From the NCBI RefSeq assembly GCF_056746865.1, contig NZ_CM163382.1: 64,000 bases of DNA; one strand, 5' to 3'. The position numbers were made by a program, and so were the translations under genes. The notes under the pieces were generated by a model. It did not search any database, was not told the origin of the DNA, and saw nothing but the letters and a program-made list of their open reading frames with translations. How positions within the stretch are numbered: position 1 is the stretch's first letter; each line of letters begins with the position of its first letter. Below are positions 7,956 through 64,000 of this stretch, piece by piece.

Positions 7956-8032
<77 letters not shown>

Positions 8033-8064
8033 TCACCGTACTGCTTTATTTCATCAAATTTGAT

Positions 8065-8141
<77 letters not shown>

Positions 8142-8174
8142 TCACCGTACTGCTTTACTTCATCAAATTTTAAT

Positions 8175-8251
<77 letters not shown>

Positions 8252-31904: not shown

Positions 31905-32686
31905 TGCTGGAAATACTCTATCAGGATGAATGGCTGGTTGCGGTAAATAAACCCTCCGGCTGGCTGGTTCACCGCAGCTGGCTGGATCGCGACGAGAAAG
32001 TAGTGGTCATGCAAACCGTGCGTGACCAGATAGGCCAGCATGTGTTTACTGCTCATCGTCTGGACCGACCAACTTCTGGTGTGTTGTTGATGGGATTATC
32101 CAGCGAGGCCGGACGGCTGCTGGCACAACAGTTTGAACAGCACCAAATCCAGAAACGTTACCATGCGATTGTGCGCGGCTGGTTGATGGAAGAAGCAGTT
32201 CTGGATTATCCACTGGTGGAAGAACTGGACAAAATCGCTGATAAATTTGCCCGCGAAGATAAAGGCCCACAGCCAGCAGTGACGCATTATCGCGGTCTGG
32301 CGACCGTAGAAATGCCGGTAGCGACCGGACGTTACCCGACCACGCGCTACGGCCTGGTGGAACTGGAGCCGAAAACCGGACGCAAGCACCAGCTCCGTCG
32401 CCATCTTGCCCATTTGCGCCACCCGATTATTGGCGACAGCAAACATGGTGATTTACGCCAGAATCGCAGCGGTGCTGAACATTTTGGCCTTCAGCGGTTA
32501 ATGTTGCATGCCAGTCAGTTGTCATTGACGCATCCTTTTACTGGCGAGCCGCTGACTATTCACGCGGGCCTGGACGACACCTGGATGCAGGCGTTATCAC
32601 AATTTGGCTGGCGCGGTCTGCTTCCTGAAAATGAAAGGGTTGAGTTCAGTGCGCCATCGGGTCAGGATGGAGAGATAAGTTCCTAA
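31904..32686 (+). CDS. truC: tRNA pseudouridine(65) synthase
   Basis: 260-aa ORF, RluA-family pseudouridine synthase. Confidence 0.9.
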
Positions 32687-42075: not shown

Positions 42076-44310
42076 ATGGTTGCGGTAAGAAGTGCACATA
42101 TCAATAAGGCTGGTGAATTTGATCCGGAAAAATGGATCGCAAGTCTGGGTATTACCAGCCAGAAGTCGTGTGAGTGCTTAGCCGAAACCTGGGCGTATTG
42201 TCTGCAACAGACGCAGGGGCATCCGGATGCCAGTCTGTTATTGTGGCGTGGTGTTGAGATGGTGGAGATCCTCTCGACATTAAGTATGGACATTGACACG
42301 CTGCGGGCGGCGCTGCTGTTCCCTCTGGCGGATGCCAACGTAGTCAGCGAAGATGTGCTGCGTGAGAGCGTCGGTAAGTCGGTCGTTAACCTTATTCACG
42401 GCGTGCGTGATATGGCGGCGATCCGCCAGCTGAAAGCGACGCATACCGATTCTGTTTCCTCCGAGCAGGTCGATAACGTTCGCCGGATGTTATTGGCGAT
42501 GGTCGATGATTTTCGCTGCGTGGTCATCAAACTGGCAGAGCGTATTGCTCATCTGCGCGAAGTAAAAGACGCGCCGGAAGATGAACGCGTACTGGCGGCA
42601 AAAGAGTGCACCAATATCTACGCGCCGTTGGCGAACCGTCTTGGGATTGGACAACTGAAATGGGAGCTGGAAGATTACTGCTTCCGTTATCTCCACCCGA
42701 CCGAATACAAACGCATCGCAAAACTGCTGCATGAACGCCGTCTCGACCGCGAACACTATATCGAAGAGTTTGTCGGCCATCTGCGCGCTGAGATGAAAGC
42801 TGAAGGCGTTAAAGCTGAAGTGTATGGTCGACCGAAACACATCTACAGCATCTGGCGCAAAATGCAGAAAAAGAACCTCGCCTTCGATGAGCTGTTTGAT
42901 GTGCGTGCGGTACGTATTGTCGCCGAGCGTTTACAGGATTGTTATGCCGCACTGGGGATAGTGCACACTCACTATCGCCACCTGCCGGATGAGTTTGACG
43001 ATTACGTCGCTAACCCGAAACCAAACGGTTATCAGTCTATTCATACCGTGGTTCTGGGGCCGGGTGGAAAAACCGTTGAGATCCAAATCCGCACCAAACA
43101 GATGCATGAAGATGCAGAGTTGGGGGTTGCTGCGCACTGGAAATATAAAGAAGGCGCGGCAGCTGGCGGCGCACGTTCGGGACATGAAGACCGAATTGCC
43201 TGGCTGCGTAAACTGATTGCGTGGCAGGAAGAGATGGCTGATTCCGGCGAAATGCTCGACGAAGTACGCAGCCAGGTCTTTGACGACCGGGTGTACGTCT
43301 TTACGCCGAAAGGTGACGTCGTTGATTTGCCTGCGGGATCAACGCCGCTGGACTTCGCTTACCACATCCACAGTGATGTCGGGCACCGCTGCATCGGGGC
43401 AAAAATTGGCGGGCGCATTGTGCCGTTCACCTACCAGCTGCAGATGGGCGACCAGATTGAAATTATCACCCAGAAACAGCCGAACCCCAGCCGTGACTGG
43501 TTAAACCCAAACCTCGGTTACGTCACAACCAGCCGTGGGCGTTCGAAAATTCACGCCTGGTTCCGTAAACAGGACCGTGACAAAAACATTCTGGCTGGGC
43601 GGCAAATCCTTGACGACGAGCTGGAACATCTGGGGATCAGCCTGAAAGAAGCAGAAAAACATCTGCTGCCGCGTTACAACTTCAATGATGTCGACGAGTT
43701 GCTGGCGGCGATTGGTGGCGGGGATATCCGTCTCAATCAGATGGTGAACTTCCTGCAATCGCAATTTAATAAGCCGAGTGCCGAAGAGCAGGATGCCGCC
43801 GCGCTGAAGCAACTTCAGCAAAAAAGCTATACGCCGCAAAACCGCAGTAAAGATAACGGTCGTGTGGTGGTTGAAGGTGTCGGTAACCTGATGCACCACA
43901 TCGCGCGCTGCTGCCAGCCGATTCCTGGAGATGAGATTGTCGGCTTCATTACCCAGGGACGCGGTATTTCAGTACACCGCGCCGATTGCGAACAACTGGC
44001 GGAACTGCGCTCCCATGCGCCAGAACGTATTGTTGATGCGGTATGGGGCGAGAGCTACTCCGCCGGATATTCGCTGGTGGTCCGCGTGGTGGCTAATGAT
44101 CGTAGTGGGTTGTTACGTGATATCACGACCATTCTCGCCAACGAGAAGGTGAACGTACTTGGCGTTGCCAGCCGTAGCGACACCAAACAGCAACTGGCGA
44201 CCATCGACATGACCATTGAGATTTACAACCTGCAAGTGCTGGGCCGCGTGCTGGGTAAACTCAACCAGGTGCCGGATGTTATCGACGCGCGTCGGTTGCA
44301 CGGGAGTTAG
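42076..44310 (+). CDS. relA: GTP pyrophosphokinase, (p)ppGpp synthetase I
   Basis: 744-aa ORF ending ...VIDARRLHGS. Confidence 0.95.
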   Translation: MVAVRSAHINKAGEFDPEKWIASLGITSQKSCECLAETWAYCLQQTQGHPDASLLLWRGVEMVEILSTLSMDIDTLRAALLFPLADANVVSEDVLRESVGKSVVNLIHGVRDMAAIRQLKATHTDSVSSEQVDNVRRMLLAMVDDFRCVVIKLAERIAHLREVKDAPEDERVLAAKECTNIYAPLANRLGIGQLKWELEDYCFRYLHPTEYKRIAKLLHERRLDREHYIEEFVGHLRAEMKAEGVKAEVYGRPKHIYSIWRKMQKKNLAFDELFDVRAVRIVAERLQDCYAALGIVHTHYRHLPDEFDDYVANPKPNGYQSIHTVVLGPGGKTVEIQIRTKQMHEDAELGVAAHWKYKEGAAAGGARSGHEDRIAWLRKLIAWQEEMADSGEMLDEVRSQVFDDRVYVFTPKGDVVDLPAGSTPLDFAYHIHSDVGHRCIGAKIGGRIVPFTYQLQMGDQIEIITQKQPNPSRDWLNPNLGYVTTSRGRSKIHAWFRKQDRDKNILAGRQILDDELEHLGISLKEAEKHLLPRYNFNDVDELLAAIGGGDIRLNQMVNFLQSQFNKPSAEEQDAAALKQLQQKSYTPQNRSKDNGRVVVEGVGNLMHHIARCCQPIPGDEIVGFITQGRGISVHRADCEQLAELRSHAPERIVDAVWGESYSAGYSLVVRVVANDRSGLLRDITTILANEKVNVLGVASRSDTKQQLATIDMTIEIYNLQVLGRVLGKLNQVPDVIDARRLHGS

Positions 44311-44405: not shown

Positions 44406-45197
44406 ATGAATCAAATCGACCGTTTGCTCACTATTATGCAGCGCCTGCGCGATCCGGAAAACGGCTGCCCGTGGGATAAAGAGCAGACATTTGCCACCAT
44501 TGCGCCTTACACCCTTGAAGAAACCTACGAGGTGCTGGACGCCATCGCCCGTGAAGATTTTGACGATCTTCGCGGTGAACTGGGCGATCTGCTGTTCCAG
44601 GTGGTGTTTTACGCACAAATGGCTCAGGAAGAAGGGCGCTTTGACTTTAATGATATATGCGCCGCGATCAGCGATAAATTAGAACGTCGCCATCCGCATG
44701 TTTTTGCTGACAGTTCTGCCGAAAATAGTAGTGAAGTGCTTGCCCGTTGGGAGCAAATCAAAACCGAAGAGCGCGCGCAGAAAGCGCAGCATTCGGCGCT
44801 GGACGATATTCCTCGTAGTTTACCGGCTTTAATGCGTGCGCAAAAAATCCAGAAACGTTGCGCCAACGTTGGTTTTGACTGGACGACGCTTGGTCCGGTA
44901 GTCGATAAAGTCTACGAAGAGATCGACGAGGTGATGTACGAGGCACGGCAGGCTGTTATCGACCAGGCTAAACTGGAGGAGGAAATGGGCGACCTGCTGT
45001 TTGCCACGGTCAATCTGGCTCGTCATTTAGGGACAAAAGCGGAAATCGCATTGCAAAAAGCGAACGAAAAATTCGAGCGTCGTTTTCGCGAAGTGGAGCG
45101 TATTGTTGCCGCGCGTGGACTGGAAATGACAGGTGTTGACCTCGAAACAATGGAAGAAGTCTGGCAACAGGTAAAACGGCAGGAAATTGATCTCTAA
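44406..45197 (+). CDS. mazG: Nucleoside triphosphate pyrophosphohydrolase MazG
   Basis: 263-aa ORF with tandem MazG domains; lies directly after relA with no mazE/mazF between. Confidence 0.9.
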   Translation: MNQIDRLLTIMQRLRDPENGCPWDKEQTFATIAPYTLEETYEVLDAIAREDFDDLRGELGDLLFQVVFYAQMAQEEGRFDFNDICAAISDKLERRHPHVFADSSAENSSEVLARWEQIKTEERAQKAQHSALDDIPRSLPALMRAQKIQKRCANVGFDWTTLGPVVDKVYEEIDEVMYEARQAVIDQAKLEEEMGDLLFATVNLARHLGTKAEIALQKANEKFERRFREVERIVAARGLEMTGVDLETMEEVWQQVKRQEIDL

Positions 45198-52262: not shown

Positions 52263-52934
52263 ATGCAGTACCCGATTAACGAGATGTTCCAGACCCTGCA
52301 AGGTGAGGGTTACTTTACCGGCGTCCCCGCCATTTTTATTCGTTTACAGGGATGCCCGGTTGGCTGTGCCTGGTGCGACACCAAACACACCTGGGAAAAG
52401 CTTGAGGATCGGGAAGTCTCCCTTTTCAGCATTCTGGCGAAGACCAAAGAGAGTGATAAGTGGGGGGCGGCGAGCAGTGAAGACTTGCTGGCTGTCATTG
52501 GTCGCCAGGGATACACCGCGCGGCATGTGGTGATTACGGGTGGTGAGCCTTGCATTCATGATTTGCTGCCACTGACTGACCTGCTCGAAAAGAACGGTTT
52601 TAGCTGCCAGATCGAAACCAGTGGTACTCATGAGGTACGCTGCACACCGAATACCTGGGTTACCGTATCGCCAAAGCTGAACATGCGCGGCGGCTATGAA
52701 GTGTTGTCACAGGCACTGGAGCGAGCCAACGAAATCAAGCATCCAGTGGGACGCGTACGTGATATTGAAGCACTGGATGAACTTTTGGCGACGCTGACCG
52801 ATGATAAACCGCGAGTCATTGCACTGCAGCCGATTAGCCAAAAGGATGATGCCACACGATTGTGCATTGAAACCTGCATTGCTCGTAATTGGCGTTTGTC
52901 GATGCAAACACATAAATATCTAAATATTGCCTGA
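52263..52934 (+). CDS. queE: 7-carboxy-7-deazaguanine synthase (radical SAM)
   Basis: 223-aa ORF with Cys motif CPVGCAWCDT. Confidence 0.9.
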   Translation: MQYPINEMFQTLQGEGYFTGVPAIFIRLQGCPVGCAWCDTKHTWEKLEDREVSLFSILAKTKESDKWGAASSEDLLAVIGRQGYTARHVVITGGEPCIHDLLPLTDLLEKNGFSCQIETSGTHEVRCTPNTWVTVSPKLNMRGGYEVLSQALERANEIKHPVGRVRDIEALDELLATLTDDKPRVIALQPISQKDDATRLCIETCIARNWRLSMQTHKYLNIA

Positions 52935-53159
52935 TTAAACATTTATAAGCGTTATAAATGGGTGGAACCTGTAAAGATTTCTACTCATTTATATTGTTTG
53001 TCGCCTCTGAAAACTCCTCCATTTTACCCATCCAGGGCTAATCATTAGCATTCTCTACAAATTCTGCGGCATTAATTTTTCGCTGGAGTGAAAATTATTG
53101 CGGTAAAGTTTGGTAGATTTTAGTCGGTATAGGATTACTTTAAATATTTAGCTTTTCAA

Positions 53160-53273
53160 TCAATGGATTAAGTGCTCTTTAACATAATGGATGTGTTGTT
53201 TGTGTGATACTATAAAGTTGGTAGATTGTGACTGACTTAAAAAATCAATAATTAATAATAGGTTATGTTTAGT
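53160..53273 (+). promoter_or_regulatory. AT-rich CRISPR leader
   Basis: AT-rich tract immediately upstream of the first repeat, on the side opposite the degenerate terminal repeat. Confidence 0.5.
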
Positions 53274-53851
53274 GAGTTCCCCGCGCCAGCGGGGATAAAC
53301 CGTCTGGGCCGGATTCGATCCCGCGCGTACCGGAGAGTTCCCCGCGCCAGCGGGGATAAACCGTACAATCCCGCATCGAAACTGAATACCCCGATGAGTT
53401 CCCCGCGCCAGCGGGGATAAACCGTTGCCCAGGCTTTTGCGAAAATTTGTGATTTGGAGTTCCCCGCGCCAGCGGGGATAAACCGACACGGGGCAGATTG
53501 AGCAGGACTGCGACCTCGAGTTCCCCGCGCCAGCGGGGATAAACCGGCAGCAGATTTACAAACAGATCGGAGATTACTGAGTTCCCCGCGCCAGCGGGGA
53601 TAAACCGCGCGGCCTGCGCTCGCGTAAAATCAGTTGCAGGAGTTCCCCGCGCCAGCGGGGATAAACCGTCCGCGCAAGCCTATATAAACCAGATTGATCA
53701 GAGTTCCCCGCGCCAGCGGGGATAAACCGCGAAATCGCACGCGCTTCCCGCATGGGGGAAAGAGTTCCCCGCGCCAGCGGGGATAAACCGTGTAAAAGTC
53801 TTGGTTTTGGCGCATCATTTGTGAGTTCCCCGCGCCAGCGGGGATAAACCA
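53274..53851 (+). CRISPR. Type I-E CRISPR array: 10 repeats of 29 bp (GAGTTCCCCGCGCCAGCGGGGATAAACCG) and 9 spacers of 32 bp; the last repeat is degenerate at its 3' end
   Basis: Exact 61-bp periodicity; repeats start at 53274, 53335, 53396, 53457, 53518, 53579, 53640, 53701, 53762, 53823; no cas genes in the window. Confidence 0.95.
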
Positions 53852-54379
53852 CCATATAACCCGTTATCTCTTTCTCAAGTTTTTATATTAGCAGTACTCG
53901 TATTAAGCAATATATCCACGTAACACCTCATGTTCAAAATAGCTCTCCATATATGAGAAGTTCACAATTATCGATACAAAAAATCAAATTTAATTAAAGT
54001 GTTAGTTGTATGATACTTAAATCATTAAGAAATTATCATATATTATTTTTTTAATATTGAATTGATGTTTGTTAATTTTTTCTTTAGGATAGTAGTTTGT
54101 TTTTTAAGCTTATTATTCATTGATTAAGTAATAAATCTGGAAATTTGTCTTTGTTTTGAGGCTAATGAGTGGTTTTACATAATCGCCTCTATACGCTGTT
54201 GATGAATAGTTCTTATGAATAAAGATATCCAGTTCATACTTTAAGTGAAAATTGATAAAGTGCGATTCGTATTGTCTTTTATTCTAAATAGACTGGCCCC
54301 CTGAATCTCCAGACAACCAATATCACTTAAATAAGTGATAGTCTTAATACTAGTTTTTAGACTAGTCATTGGAGAGCAG

Positions 54380-54745
54380 ATGATTGATGTCTTAGGACCG
54401 GAGAAACGCAGACGGCGTACTACACAGGAAAAGATCGCTATTGTTCAGCAGAGTTTTGAACCGGGAATGACGGTCTCCCTTGTTGCCCGGCAACACGGTG
54501 TGGCAGCCAGCCAGTTATTTCTCTGGCGCAAGCAATACCAGGAGGGAAGTCTTACTGCTGTGGCCGCAGGAGAGCAGGTCGTTCCTGCCTCTGAACTTGC
54601 TGCTGCCATGAAGCAGATTAAAGAACTCCAGCGCCTGCTCGGCAAAAAAACGATGGAAAATGAACTCCTTAAAGAAGCCGTTGAATACGGGCGTGCAAAA
54701 AAGTGGATAGCGCACGCGCCCTTATTGCCCGGGGATGGGGAGTAA
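54380..54745 (+). CDS. insC: IS2 transposase OrfA (InsC), helix-turn-helix
   Basis: Track ORF 54335..54745; start taken at [13 protein letters not shown] (121 aa). Confidence 0.9.
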
Positions 54746-55608
54746 GCTTAGTCAGCCGTTGTCTCCGGGTGTCGCGTGCGCAGTTGCACGTCATTCTCAG
54801 ACGAACCGATGACTGGAAAGATGGTCGCCGCAGCCGTCACTCAGATGATACGGATGTGCTTCTCCGTATACACCATGTTATCGGAGAGCTGCCCACGTAT
54901 GGTTATCGTCGGGTATGGGCGCTGCTTCGCAGACAGGCCGAACTTGATGGTATGCCTGCGATCAATGCCAAACGTGTTTACCGGATCATGCGCCAGAATG
55001 CGCTGTTGCTTGAGCGAAAAACCGCTGTACCGCCATCGAAACGGGCACATACTGGCAAAGTGGCCGTGAAAGAAAGCAATCAACGATGGTGCTCTGACGG
55101 GTTCGAGTTCCGCTGTGATAACGGAGAAAAACTGCGAGTCACGTTCGCGCTGGACTGCTGTGACCGTGAGGCACTGCACTGGGCAGTCACTACGGGCGGC
55201 TTCGACAGTGAAACAGTACAGGACGTAATGCTGGGAGCGGTGGAACGCCGCTTCGGCAACGAGCTTCCGGCGTCTCCAGTAGAGTGGCTGACGGATAATG
55301 GTTCATGCTACCGGGCTAATGAAACACGGCAGTTTGCCCGGATGTTGGGGCTTGAACCGAAGAACACGGCGGTGCGGAGTCCGGAGAGTAACGGCATAGC
55401 AGAGAGCTTCGTGAAAACGATAAAGCGTGACTACATCAGTATCATGCCTAAACCAGACGGGTTAACGGCAGCAAAGAACCTTGCAGAGGCGTTCGAGCAT
55501 TATAACGAATGGCATCCGCATAGTGCACTGGGTTATCGCTCGCCACGGGAATATCTACGGCAGCGGGCCAGTAATGGGTTAAGTGATAACAGGTGTCTGG
55601 AAATATAG
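54703..55608 (+). CDS. insD: IS2 transposase OrfB (InsD), DDE catalytic domain; overlaps OrfA in the -1 frame (programmed frameshift arrangement)
   Basis: 301-aa ORF recognised as IS2 InsD. Confidence 0.9.
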
Positions 55609-55641
55609 GGGCAAATCCACTAAAGACATCGAGTGTAGTTA

Positions 55642-55780
55642 ATATTCCTTGTAAAAACAGGGATAAACCGAACTAGTTAAAGTTTTTATTATGTTCCCTG
55701 CATCAGCGGGGATAAACCGGACTTGTTATCATTTTTTAAGTTGTCGAACTTATGTTCCCCGCGTCAGCGGGGATAACCAT
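55642..55780 (+). CRISPR. Degenerate CRISPR array remnant (about 3 diverged type I-E repeats, 2 spacers)
   Basis: atattccttgtaaaaacagggataaaccg, atgttccctgcatcagcggggataaaccg and atgttccccgcgtcagcggggataaccat, in the same orientation as the main array. Confidence 0.6.
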
Positions 55781-55825: not shown

Positions 55826-57304
55826 TTACGCATTCGACCAGCTCTGGATCGAATCCGCATTCCCCAATTCCCCATGCATCACTTCATACGATTTTTTCAG
55901 GATTACATCAGTATGTTTGGTTAACTCCTTGAAAATGCCTTTATTCATCGCGTCGTAGCGTTTGGCATTGTTCTCAACAGGCATAAAGATATCTTTCACG
56001 CGAACCATTTTGTCGACAGCCGTTGCGTAATCCGGGTATAGCCCCAGACCTACCGCCGTATTGATCGCTGCCCCCAGACTTGCACAACCATTAATGGCGT
56101 TACGGCGTGCCGGAAGGTTGAACACGTCGGCAAAAATCTGCATAAACAGATCGCTGTTCGAACCGCCGCCAGTAATGATCACATGTTTGGCAAAGTGATT
56201 CATTTCATTACACATATTGTCGTAATTGTTCTTCAGCGTCAGCGCCACGCTTTCCAGTATCGAACGATATATCCATGCGTAATCCATGCTGGAATCAAAG
56301 CCGATCATAATCCCGCGTTTGTACGGTTCCCACGGATTGGTCAGCCAGTCCAGCACCGTCATCAGACCATTACAGCCAGGCGGCACACAAGACGCTTTCT
56401 TGTTGAGTAAATCTTCCGGTGAAAGATCCTGTGCTTTGGCATCCTGAATTAACGACTCGCCTAACATGTCGCGCAGCCAGCTCACTGTCCACATGCCTTT
56501 GCGGATACCGTAACCTTCATACAGCAATGTTTGCGGAATAGAAGACATAATTGGCCAGTACGCCACCGGATCTTTCGGCAGTGCTTTGCCGTTCATCATC
56601 AATGCGATGTAAGTGCCAAGAGAAATTACCGCAGTTTCATTATCCAGTAATCCGGCCCCCAGAGCTTCTACCGGTTTATCACTGGTGGTACAAACAACCG
56701 GCAGTCCTGCCGGGAAATGTGTCGCCAGTGCGGCTTGTGGTGTGATATGTCCGAGGACGGTGCCAGGCATTTGCACATCAAAAAGCATATGACGGGGGAT
56801 ATTAAACTTCTCCATGACTGCGGCATCTTCACTCCATGCCCAGGTCTTATAATCCACCGGCCACTGACCAAAATAGTTGGCGATATTGTCTTTAAACTCG
56901 CCGGTTAAGCGATGCGTCAGATAACCTGAAAAAGAGGTGACATATGCCACGTCAGGATTCGTATGTTCGTAAGGGCGTGTAACGCGTGCATCCTGCCAGC
57001 TAATCAACGGCGCAGCTGGCGTGCCATCGGCTTTCAATAACGCACGGCAGCAACGGATGGATCCCAGACCAATACCGACAATATCTTCTTTATTCCCGGC
57101 AAACTGACTCATCAAATCGTGACCGGCAAAACATAATGATGCCCATAAATCGTCGTCAGGATGTTCTGCGGTATCGGCATCTGGCGTGTGCATCGGCTGC
57201 AATAAGCCTTTGCCTTCGCAAACCACATTACCTTCCAGATCATACATCACCACTTTTGTGCTCTGACTTCCGCCATCAATCCCTATGATGTATTTTTTCG
57301 ACAT
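55826..57304 (-). CDS. ygcE: FGGY-family carbohydrate kinase, substrate unknown
   Basis: 492-aa ORF with FGGY kinase N- and C-terminal domains. Confidence 0.9.
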   Translation of the reverse strand: MSKKYIIGIDGGSQSTKVVMYDLEGNVVCEGKGLLQPMHTPDADTAEHPDDDLWASLCFAGHDLMSQFAGNKEDIVGIGLGSIRCCRALLKADGTPAAPLISWQDARVTRPYEHTNPDVAYVTSFSGYLTHRLTGEFKDNIANYFGQWPVDYKTWAWSEDAAVMEKFNIPRHMLFDVQMPGTVLGHITPQAALATHFPAGLPVVCTTSDKPVEALGAGLLDNETAVISLGTYIALMMNGKALPKDPVAYWPIMSSIPQTLLYEGYGIRKGMWTVSWLRDMLGESLIQDAKAQDLSPEDLLNKKASCVPPGCNGLMTVLDWLTNPWEPYKRGIMIGFDSSMDYAWIYRSILESVALTLKNNYDNMCNEMNHFAKHVIITGGGSNSDLFMQIFADVFNLPARRNAINGCASLGAAINTAVGLGLYPDYATAVDKMVRVKDIFMPVENNAKRYDAMNKGIFKELTKHTDVILKKSYEVMHGELGNADSIQSWSNA

Positions 57305-63424: not shown

Positions 63425-64000
63425 ATATCGCAATTGTGACAATAAATCAGGAGAATGCCGCAATAGCGAGCTGGCAGGCGGCGCAGGATTTCAGCGGTTG
63501 TACCCTGGCGCACTGGAAGATTGAACCTCAGCCCGCTGTGGCGGAACAGGTGCTGGATGCGCTGGTGGAACAGTGGCAGCGAACGCCTGCGGACGTTGTT
63601 CTCTTTCCGCCGGGAACGTTTGGCGATGAACTGTCGACCCGGCTGGCCTGGCGTTTACATGGTGCAAGCATCTGCCAGGTGACTTCGTTAGATATTCCAA
63701 CCGTAAGCGTGCGCAAATCCCACTGGGGAAATGCGCTAACGGCGACGCTGCAAACAGAAAAACGCCCGCTATGCCTTTCCCTGGCGCGTCAGGCGGGAGC
63801 AGCGAAAAACGCCACGTTGCCCTCTGGTATGCAGCAACTGAACATTGTCCCAGGTGCGCTTCCCGACTGGCTGGTTAGCACAGAGGATCTGAAAAATGTT
63901 ACCCGTGACCCATTAGCTGAGGCCAGACGGGTGCTGGTGGTGGGGCAGGGCGGAGAGGCAGATAACCAGGAAATCGCTATGCTGGCAGAAAAGCTGGGAG
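63421..64000 (+). CDS. ygcQ: Electron transfer flavoprotein alpha-subunit-like protein (FixB-like), 3'-truncated by the window edge
   Basis: ATG at 63421 overlaps the ygcR stop; frame stays open to the window end (MNIAIVTINQENAAIASWQ...); absent from the ORF track because no stop is reached. Confidence 0.8.
   Translation, partial: MNIAIVTINQENAAIASWQAAQDFSGCTLAHWKIEPQPAVAEQVLDALVEQWQRTPADVVLFPPGTFGDELSTRLAWRLHGASICQVTSLDIPTVSVRKSHWGNALTATLQTEKRPLCLSLARQAGAAKNATLPSGMQQLNIVPGALPDWLVSTEDLKNVTRDPLAEARRVLVVGQGGEADNQEIAMLAEKLG

Follow-up and report, generated by a model that had tools for sequence, protein, structure and literature searches.

Architecture of the CRISPR array and its flanks

The window (the whole 64-kb stretch of DNA that was analysed) carries a CRISPR array on its plus strand at 53274–53851, flanked on the leader side by queE (ygcF; 52263–52934, plus strand) and on the trailer side by ygcE (55826–57304, minus strand). 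Both flanking genes are open reading frames in the window; the first is annotated as queE at the syntenic site in E. coli 118UI and in K-12, and the second as ygcE in 118UI. Based on direct reading, a repeat finder, and an exhaustive Hamming scan of both strands over the whole window, the array comprises ten repeats of GAGTTCCCCGCGCCAGCGGGGATAAACCG, the first beginning at 53274, the second at 53335, and the last at 53823, with a start-to-start period of exactly 61 nt. Repeats 1–9 are identical 29-mers, and repeat 10 (53823–53851, plus strand) differs from them by one substitution, its final base being A instead of G. The nine spacers, from 53303–53334 through 53791–53822, are each exactly 32 nt long, giving a total array length of 578 bp, and the PGAP annotation marks a 'CRISPR' at the matching place in 118UI. 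Nine perfect 29-mers in an exact 61-nt register cannot be of chance origin.

A preliminary description of this stretch, made from its letters alone, had proposed a type I-E array with nine spacers, and the three approaches bear this out, including its ten 29-bp repeats (nine of them identical) and 32-bp spacers; the spacers that it listed agree with ours letter for letter. Its span of 53160–53851 has the correct end, but 53160 lies inside the leader and the array proper begins at 53274. Likewise, the terminal repeat is indeed changed, but to call it degenerate overstates a single substitution, and the K-12 CRISPR-II array ends in a repeat of this very sequence. The predicted fold of the array's repeat has a 4-nt loop on a 7-bp stem (-15.1 kcal/mol, z = -3.6) and leaves the 3' tail AUAAACC-G unpaired; the shape of this plus-strand hairpin is the one expected for a type I-E repeat read in the crRNA sense. 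A search against Rfam returned no match at gathering thresholds and no CRISPR repeat family, only two chance-level matches at E up to 1.

The E. coli CRISPR-II locus is the one between ygcE and ygcF, where the arrays CRISPR2.2 and CRISPR2.3 stand 0.5 kb apart (PMC3903273). The array in the window has the features of CRISPR2.3: a 29-nt repeat of 'type 2' whose core is palindromic, spacers about 32 nt long that recur in a regular 61-nt register, and a position between ygcE and ygcF (queE).

Leader region

The intergenic region between queE and the first repeat (52935–53273, plus strand) is AT-rich, as the preliminary description had reported for the queE side, with a GC content of 31% (27% in its final 100 nt) compared to 51% for the window. 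It aligns to the K-12 CRISPR-II leader with 97% identity over 386 columns, and this identity, together with its AT-richness, marks it as the leader 2.3 upstream of repeat 1. Promoters reside in the leaders adjoining CRISPR2.1 and CRISPR2.3 (PMC3903273). A consensus scan predicted a candidate promoter at 53232–53259 on the plus strand (CTGACT, a 16-nt spacer, and AATAAT), 15 nt upstream of repeat 1; the scanned region held eight such sites against 3.8 expected from shuffles, so this candidate is weak evidence when taken alone. The leader also contains an imperfect direct repeat, with copies at 53103–53125 (TAAAGTTTGGTAGATT) and 53213–53234 (TAAAGTTGGTAGATT), about 110 bp apart, and both copies are kept in the K-12 leader.

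CRISPR2.2 remnant and IS2 insertion

Downstream of the last repeat lies an AT-rich region (26% GC) that runs from 53852 to 54288 and resumes at 55620–55641, beyond an insertion sequence. Leaving the insertion aside, the last CRISPR2.3 repeat and the first clear CRISPR2.2 repeat lie 503 bp apart, as they do in K-12, and a '0.5-kb AT-rich sequence' is reported for this gap in the literature (PMC10910852). The region ends at a degenerate mini-array adjoining ygcE (55642–55780, plus strand), which corresponds to the remnant named CRISPR2.2 (PMC3903273). Its three repeats, at 55642–55670 (18/29, counted by eye), 55691–55719 (24/29), and 55752–55780 (23/29), are spaced by 49 nt and then 61 nt, and the latter two are identical to those of K-12 and occupy the same relative position.

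The insertion is an IS2 element of 1,331 bp (54289–55619, plus strand) with a 5-bp target duplication, CTAAA, at 54284–54288 and 55620–55624; this length and duplication are standard for IS2. Both of its ORFs are intact and match the NCBIfam models for IS2 TnpA (276 bits; cut-off 229) and IS2 TnpB (708 bits; cut-off 597), so that length, duplication, and gene content all agree with an IS2 of the IS3 family. None of 5,426 complete E. coli genomes carries IS2 at this junction, and its absence from the site in these genomes means that the insertion marks the strain or a sub-lineage. The element is separate from the CRISPR system; it begins 437 bp after the last repeat, and an effect on leader or array is not expected. 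Sporadic IS elements are known in the CRISPR-II locus, without apparent impact (PMC3903273).

Distribution of the array among E. coli genomes

The window is of E. coli origin: a 4-kb query around the array found matches in 5,425 of the 5,426 complete E. coli genomes, the best of them 100% identical apart from lacking about 1.3 kb. When the 578-bp array itself was used, 122 of these genomes matched at ≥99% identity, and a query of the nine concatenated spacers was covered completely in 115, with about 30 more carrying subsets. The nine-spacer array is thus present, in the same order, in about 115–122 of the 5,426 genomes, which represent ST69 and its relatives: AGR6137 (PMC9676056) and EF5-18-41 (PMC8350485), both with the identical array, belong to ST69 and phylogroup D, and EcPF15 is listed as ST394 (PMC7427188). 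Variants of the array are internal deletions. For example, DG343-1 retains only S7–S9, and the array of 2021CK-01784 consists of S1, S2, S7, one extra spacer, and S9.

The suggestion in the preliminary description that spacer content is strain-specific was therefore inexact, since more than 100 genomes, sampled on several continents and from several hosts, share the identical array; the content is specific to the clone. The comparison of spacer order that it had proposed likewise gave an order shared across the clone, with DG343-1 and 2021CK-01784 as deletion variants. The nine-spacer array and its deletion variants can serve as a typing marker for the ST69-related lineage.

Origins of the spacers

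All nine spacers were compared by blastn (E up to 10) with 50,697 phage records, 72,556 plasmid records, and the 5,426 E. coli genomes, as the preliminary description had advised, and two of them found a counterpart. Spacer 1 (53303–53334, plus strand), the leader-adjacent and newest one, matches at 32/32 positions the terminase large-subunit gene of a P2-type prophage that lies beside tRNA-Leu in E. coli N1420. The protospacer is preceded by AAG, the type I-E PAM, with its G aligned to the last G of the repeat, and it is the sole exact protospacer among the matches listed. Compared to any isolated phage in the collection, the N1420 terminase gene reaches about 65% DNA identity at most; the prophage represents a P2-like group that has been poorly sampled. 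In an unrelated strain, 2017-02-2CC, spacer 14 of the 23 in the CRISPR-I array agrees with spacer 1 at 31/32 positions, which implies that this P2-like terminase site was captured independently. At least spacer 1 is of phage origin, and it records that a P2-like phage was met in the past, one whose terminase gene is not closely related to that of any isolated phage.

Spacer 4 (53486–53517, plus strand) is similar to the gene for a DnaB-like replicative helicase that lambdoid and temperate siphophages carry. Its best full-length match (29/32) is in a lambdoid prophage of E. coli EC21Z-063, and matches of 26–29 bases occur in helicase genes of Klebsiella, Enterobacter, Citrobacter, and Vibrio phages and also in plasmids. 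These repeated matches within one gene family argue for a real homology, with a true donor that is absent from the databases searched. The EC21Z-063 homolog is preceded by GCG; with three mismatches it is not the true donor, and its PAM is uninformative.

For the remaining seven spacers (2, 3, and 5–9), the matches listed in the phage, plasmid, and E. coli searches included none outside CRISPR arrays. In the phage and plasmid searches spacer 4 alone was matched, except for NZ_CP141089.1, a 4.9-Mb E. coli chromosome that carries the array and is filed among the plasmids, giving a misleading full-length 'plasmid' match. Scans of viral contigs with spacers 1–8 (spacers 2 and 4 at full length, the others as their first 23 nt, with N at every sixth position) returned zero matches, a result of low weight because the positive control, spacer 1, also returned zero. 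The check for self-targeting that had been proposed was likewise negative: no spacer has a match beyond 16 nt elsewhere in the window, and the array-bearing genomes among the matches listed show the array match only. E. coli spacers mostly target prophages, and the pattern found here agrees with this (PMC10910852).

Probable location of the cas operon

No cas gene was found in the 64-kb window, as had been noted before: tblastn of the eight Cas proteins of a near-identical strain produced two spurious matches (E = 0.05 over 71 aa, and E = 0.87). The preliminary description left two readings for this, an array served by a distant cas operon or an orphan. The latter was suggested by a window that stops short of the operon. 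According to published work, the E. coli type I-E system occupies two separate places, and its cas operon adjoins the other array about 20 kb away; the operon normally lies about 17 kb past the CRISPR-II array, and the window ends about 10 kb past it. In 118UI, cas3 starts 8,232 bp past the position that matches base 64000 of the window. The genes following ygcE in that genome are, in order, yqcE, ygcW, ygcU, ygcS, ygcR, ygcQ, ygcP, ygcO, ygcN, queD, cysJIH, and hok/gef, after which come cas3, casA, casB, cas7e, cas5e, cas6e, cas1e, cas2e, CRISPR-I, and iap.

The two genomes are nearly identical over the window. Positions 1–32264 show no mismatch to 118UI and positions 32000–64000 show one in about 30.7 kb, plus the IS2, so that overall there is one mismatch in about 62 kb besides the IS2 and a difference in tRNA-Met copy number. 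Shigella, which the IS had brought to mind as a possible source, need not be invoked given so close a match to an E. coli strain. Based on collinearity with near-identical genomes, we infer that cas3 of the source strain is to be expected about 8.2 kb beyond the end of the window and about 17 kb from the array. The type I-E operon is present in all five members of the clone examined (118UI, M7424, EF5-18-41, EcPF15, and DG343-1).

If the source strain had lost its cas operon, for instance through an IS-mediated deletion, the array would be a true orphan and a non-functional relic. The 64 kb lacking cas genes fit this idea, and so does the recent arrival of at least one IS2 copy in the locus, since an IS2 active in the strain could have caused such a deletion; IS elements drove CRISPR-I/cas deletions in some strains, and some strains have a CRISPR2.3 leader but lack the cas-E genes (PMC3903273). 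However, the operon would fall outside the window even if present, the 10 kb past the array are collinear with 118UI up to the end of the window, the divergence from this clone member is minimal, and the operon is kept whole in 5/5 members. We consider loss of the operon a slim prospect, and the array is, judged by its relatives, very probably not an orphan. Thus, the part of the earlier alternative that invoked a distant operon is favoured, both by the 118UI collinearity and because CRISPR-II has no adjacent cas genes by design.

We therefore read the feature, with a probability of roughly 85%, as CRISPR2.3 at the CRISPR-II locus of E. coli, the second array of a chromosomal type I-E system, which has no cas genes beside it and is served in trans, here in an ST69-related (phylogroup D) extraintestinal pathogenic clone. 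Its identity as CRISPR2.3 follows from the anatomy of the array, its position between queE and ygcE, the K-12-like leader (97%), and the CRISPR2.2 remnant 0.5 kb downstream. The literature already describes this type of locus, where it lies, how it is separated from the cas genes, and how static it is in evolution.

State of the cas genes in the clone

In the clone, cas1e is interrupted by a nonsense codon, TAA at codon 200 (Y200), seen by translation in 118UI, M7424, and EF5-18-41 and annotated by PGAP as an internal stop in EcPF15 and DG343-1 (5/5). Compared to K-12 Cas1 (84% identity), the stop replaces Y200, and H208 and D221 are lost; these are two of the three active-site residues of Cas1. 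An exact 61-mer centred on the stop was found in 141 of the 5,426 genomes, and 2,075 other cas1e-bearing genomes differ from it by at least one base. Compared as totals, the genomes with the TAA allele (141) are close in number to those of the array family (about 145). The remaining genes, cas3, casA, casB, cas7, cas5, cas6e, and cas2, are intact in all five genomes, with identical protein accessions.

As the nonsense codon precedes both H208 and D221, we predict that spacer acquisition has been abolished and that the array can change by deletion only; the clone is thus predicted to be unable to gain new spacers, and potentially still capable of interference. This bears on the idea, implied by the preliminary description, of a fully active adaptive locus that still gains spacers and records recent strain-specific infections. 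In its favour stand the intact leader and first repeat and the perfect match of spacer 1 beside a canonical PAM. However, the same nine spacers stand in one order in about 115–122 genomes, 141 genomes carry a cas1 truncated before both residues, and spacer 1, being common to another, more distant lineage, is older than the clone. The idea is largely refuted, and we regard it as extremely improbable.

In the related and more divergent 2021CK-01784, cas1e is intact and cas3 is frameshifted. The leader end of its array begins with the shared S1 and S2, and no newer spacer precedes them. The cas1 nonsense codon was therefore rejected as the whole cause of the frozen array, as 2021CK-01784 is static with an intact cas1; its stasis fits the slow change known for E. 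coli arrays (PMC10910852). Two different cas genes have been inactivated independently in these related lineages, cas1e in the clone and cas3 in 2021CK-01784.

Proposed mechanism and activity

According to established type I-E biology, the leader promoter would drive transcription of a plus-strand pre-crRNA (references in PMC3903273 and PMC10910852). Cas6e would bind the 7-bp hairpin and cut at its 3' base, releasing 61-nt crRNAs that each consist of an 8-nt 5' handle (AUAAACCG), the 32-nt spacer, and a 21-nt 3' hairpin. Loaded into Cascade, these crRNAs would direct it to AAG-flanked protospacers, where Cas3 would be recruited and the DNA degraded. Acquisition at the leader-repeat junction would require Cas1–Cas2, of which the clone is predicted to lack a functional Cas1. 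The cas promoter is normally silenced by H-NS in E. coli, so that immunity would be conditional and may in practice give no protection (references in PMC10910852).

This silencing leads to a further possibility, namely a locus that has its cas genes but at present serves no immune purpose and persists as an H-NS-silenced, frozen relic, never usefully expressed and kept because it costs nothing. Over 100 genomes, of diverse hosts and several continents, have identical copies of the array, its variation is by deletion only, cas1 is inactivated, and the frameshifted cas3 of the related lineage suggests relaxed selection; moreover, activity in natural isolates is undemonstrated and arrays are stable over very long times (PMC10910852). 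However, the five clone genomes all have intact genes for Cas3 and the five Cascade subunits (Cas6e among them), with identical products, the nine non-terminal repeats are perfectly conserved, and no array-bearing genome among the matches listed harbours the target of spacer 1 or spacer 4 as a resident prophage. The missing resident targets fit the anti-prophage role proposed in PMC10910852. Given this evidence on both sides, a relic without function is the less probable outcome, with perhaps one chance in four.

A locus that keeps its interference genes and has lost its means of writing would instead act as a 'read-only' memory. The type I-E system of the globally spread ST69-related clone, with a fixed Y200 stop in cas1 and intact Cas3, Cascade, and Cas6e, may be of this kind, with exclusion of P2-like and lambdoid prophages potentially retained; we put the chances for and against this at about even. 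If it holds, both arrays would be stable barcodes of the clone. Within a narrow search, we found no mention of the cas1 Y200 defect in the literature, and PGAP flags the pseudogene in public RefSeq records. The nonsense codon is the only mildly new point here: although it lies outside the window, it provides a small, testable footnote, clone-wide in extent, on arrays that are able only to shrink. Beyond its correct annotation the locus is of little consequence, the exact array being public in more than 100 genomes.

Comparison with known CRISPR systems

Within ST69, the arrays of 118UI, AGR6137, EF5-18-41, and M7424 are 100% identical to that of the window over the 578 bp. The minus strand of the window at 7956–8251 carries tRNA-Met(CAT) genes in three tandem copies spaced by about 110 bp, whereas the 118UI assembly has one, which reflects either a real difference in copy number or a collapsed repeat in that assembly. 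Between relA (42076–44310) and mazG (44406–45197) there is a gap of 95 bp, and mazEF is absent both here and in 118UI; in K-12, this toxin-antitoxin pair sits between the two genes.

The K-12 CRISPR-II locus resembles that of the window in its flanking genes, orientation, 29-nt repeats, 32-nt spacers, and terminal repeat. However, K-12 has six spacers compared to nine in the window, with none in common, and position 2 of its internal repeats is T (GTGTTCC...) instead of A, leaving 28/29 identity. The AT-rich gap, occupied by IS2 in the window, is uninterrupted by it in K-12. The cas operon of the window's clone is a non-K-12 variant, with gene lengths of 2700, 1563, 537, 1056, 747, 651, 924, and 294 bp that match 'var. 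B-8552' (PMC12736100).

CRISPR-I (CRISPR2.1), located by iap and cas2, has its repeat family and Cas proteins in common with CRISPR-II; it adjoins the cas operon, whereas CRISPR-II does not. The leaders of the two loci also differ: that of CRISPR-I changes together with the cas variant, and that of CRISPR2.3 is uniform across strains (PMC3903273).
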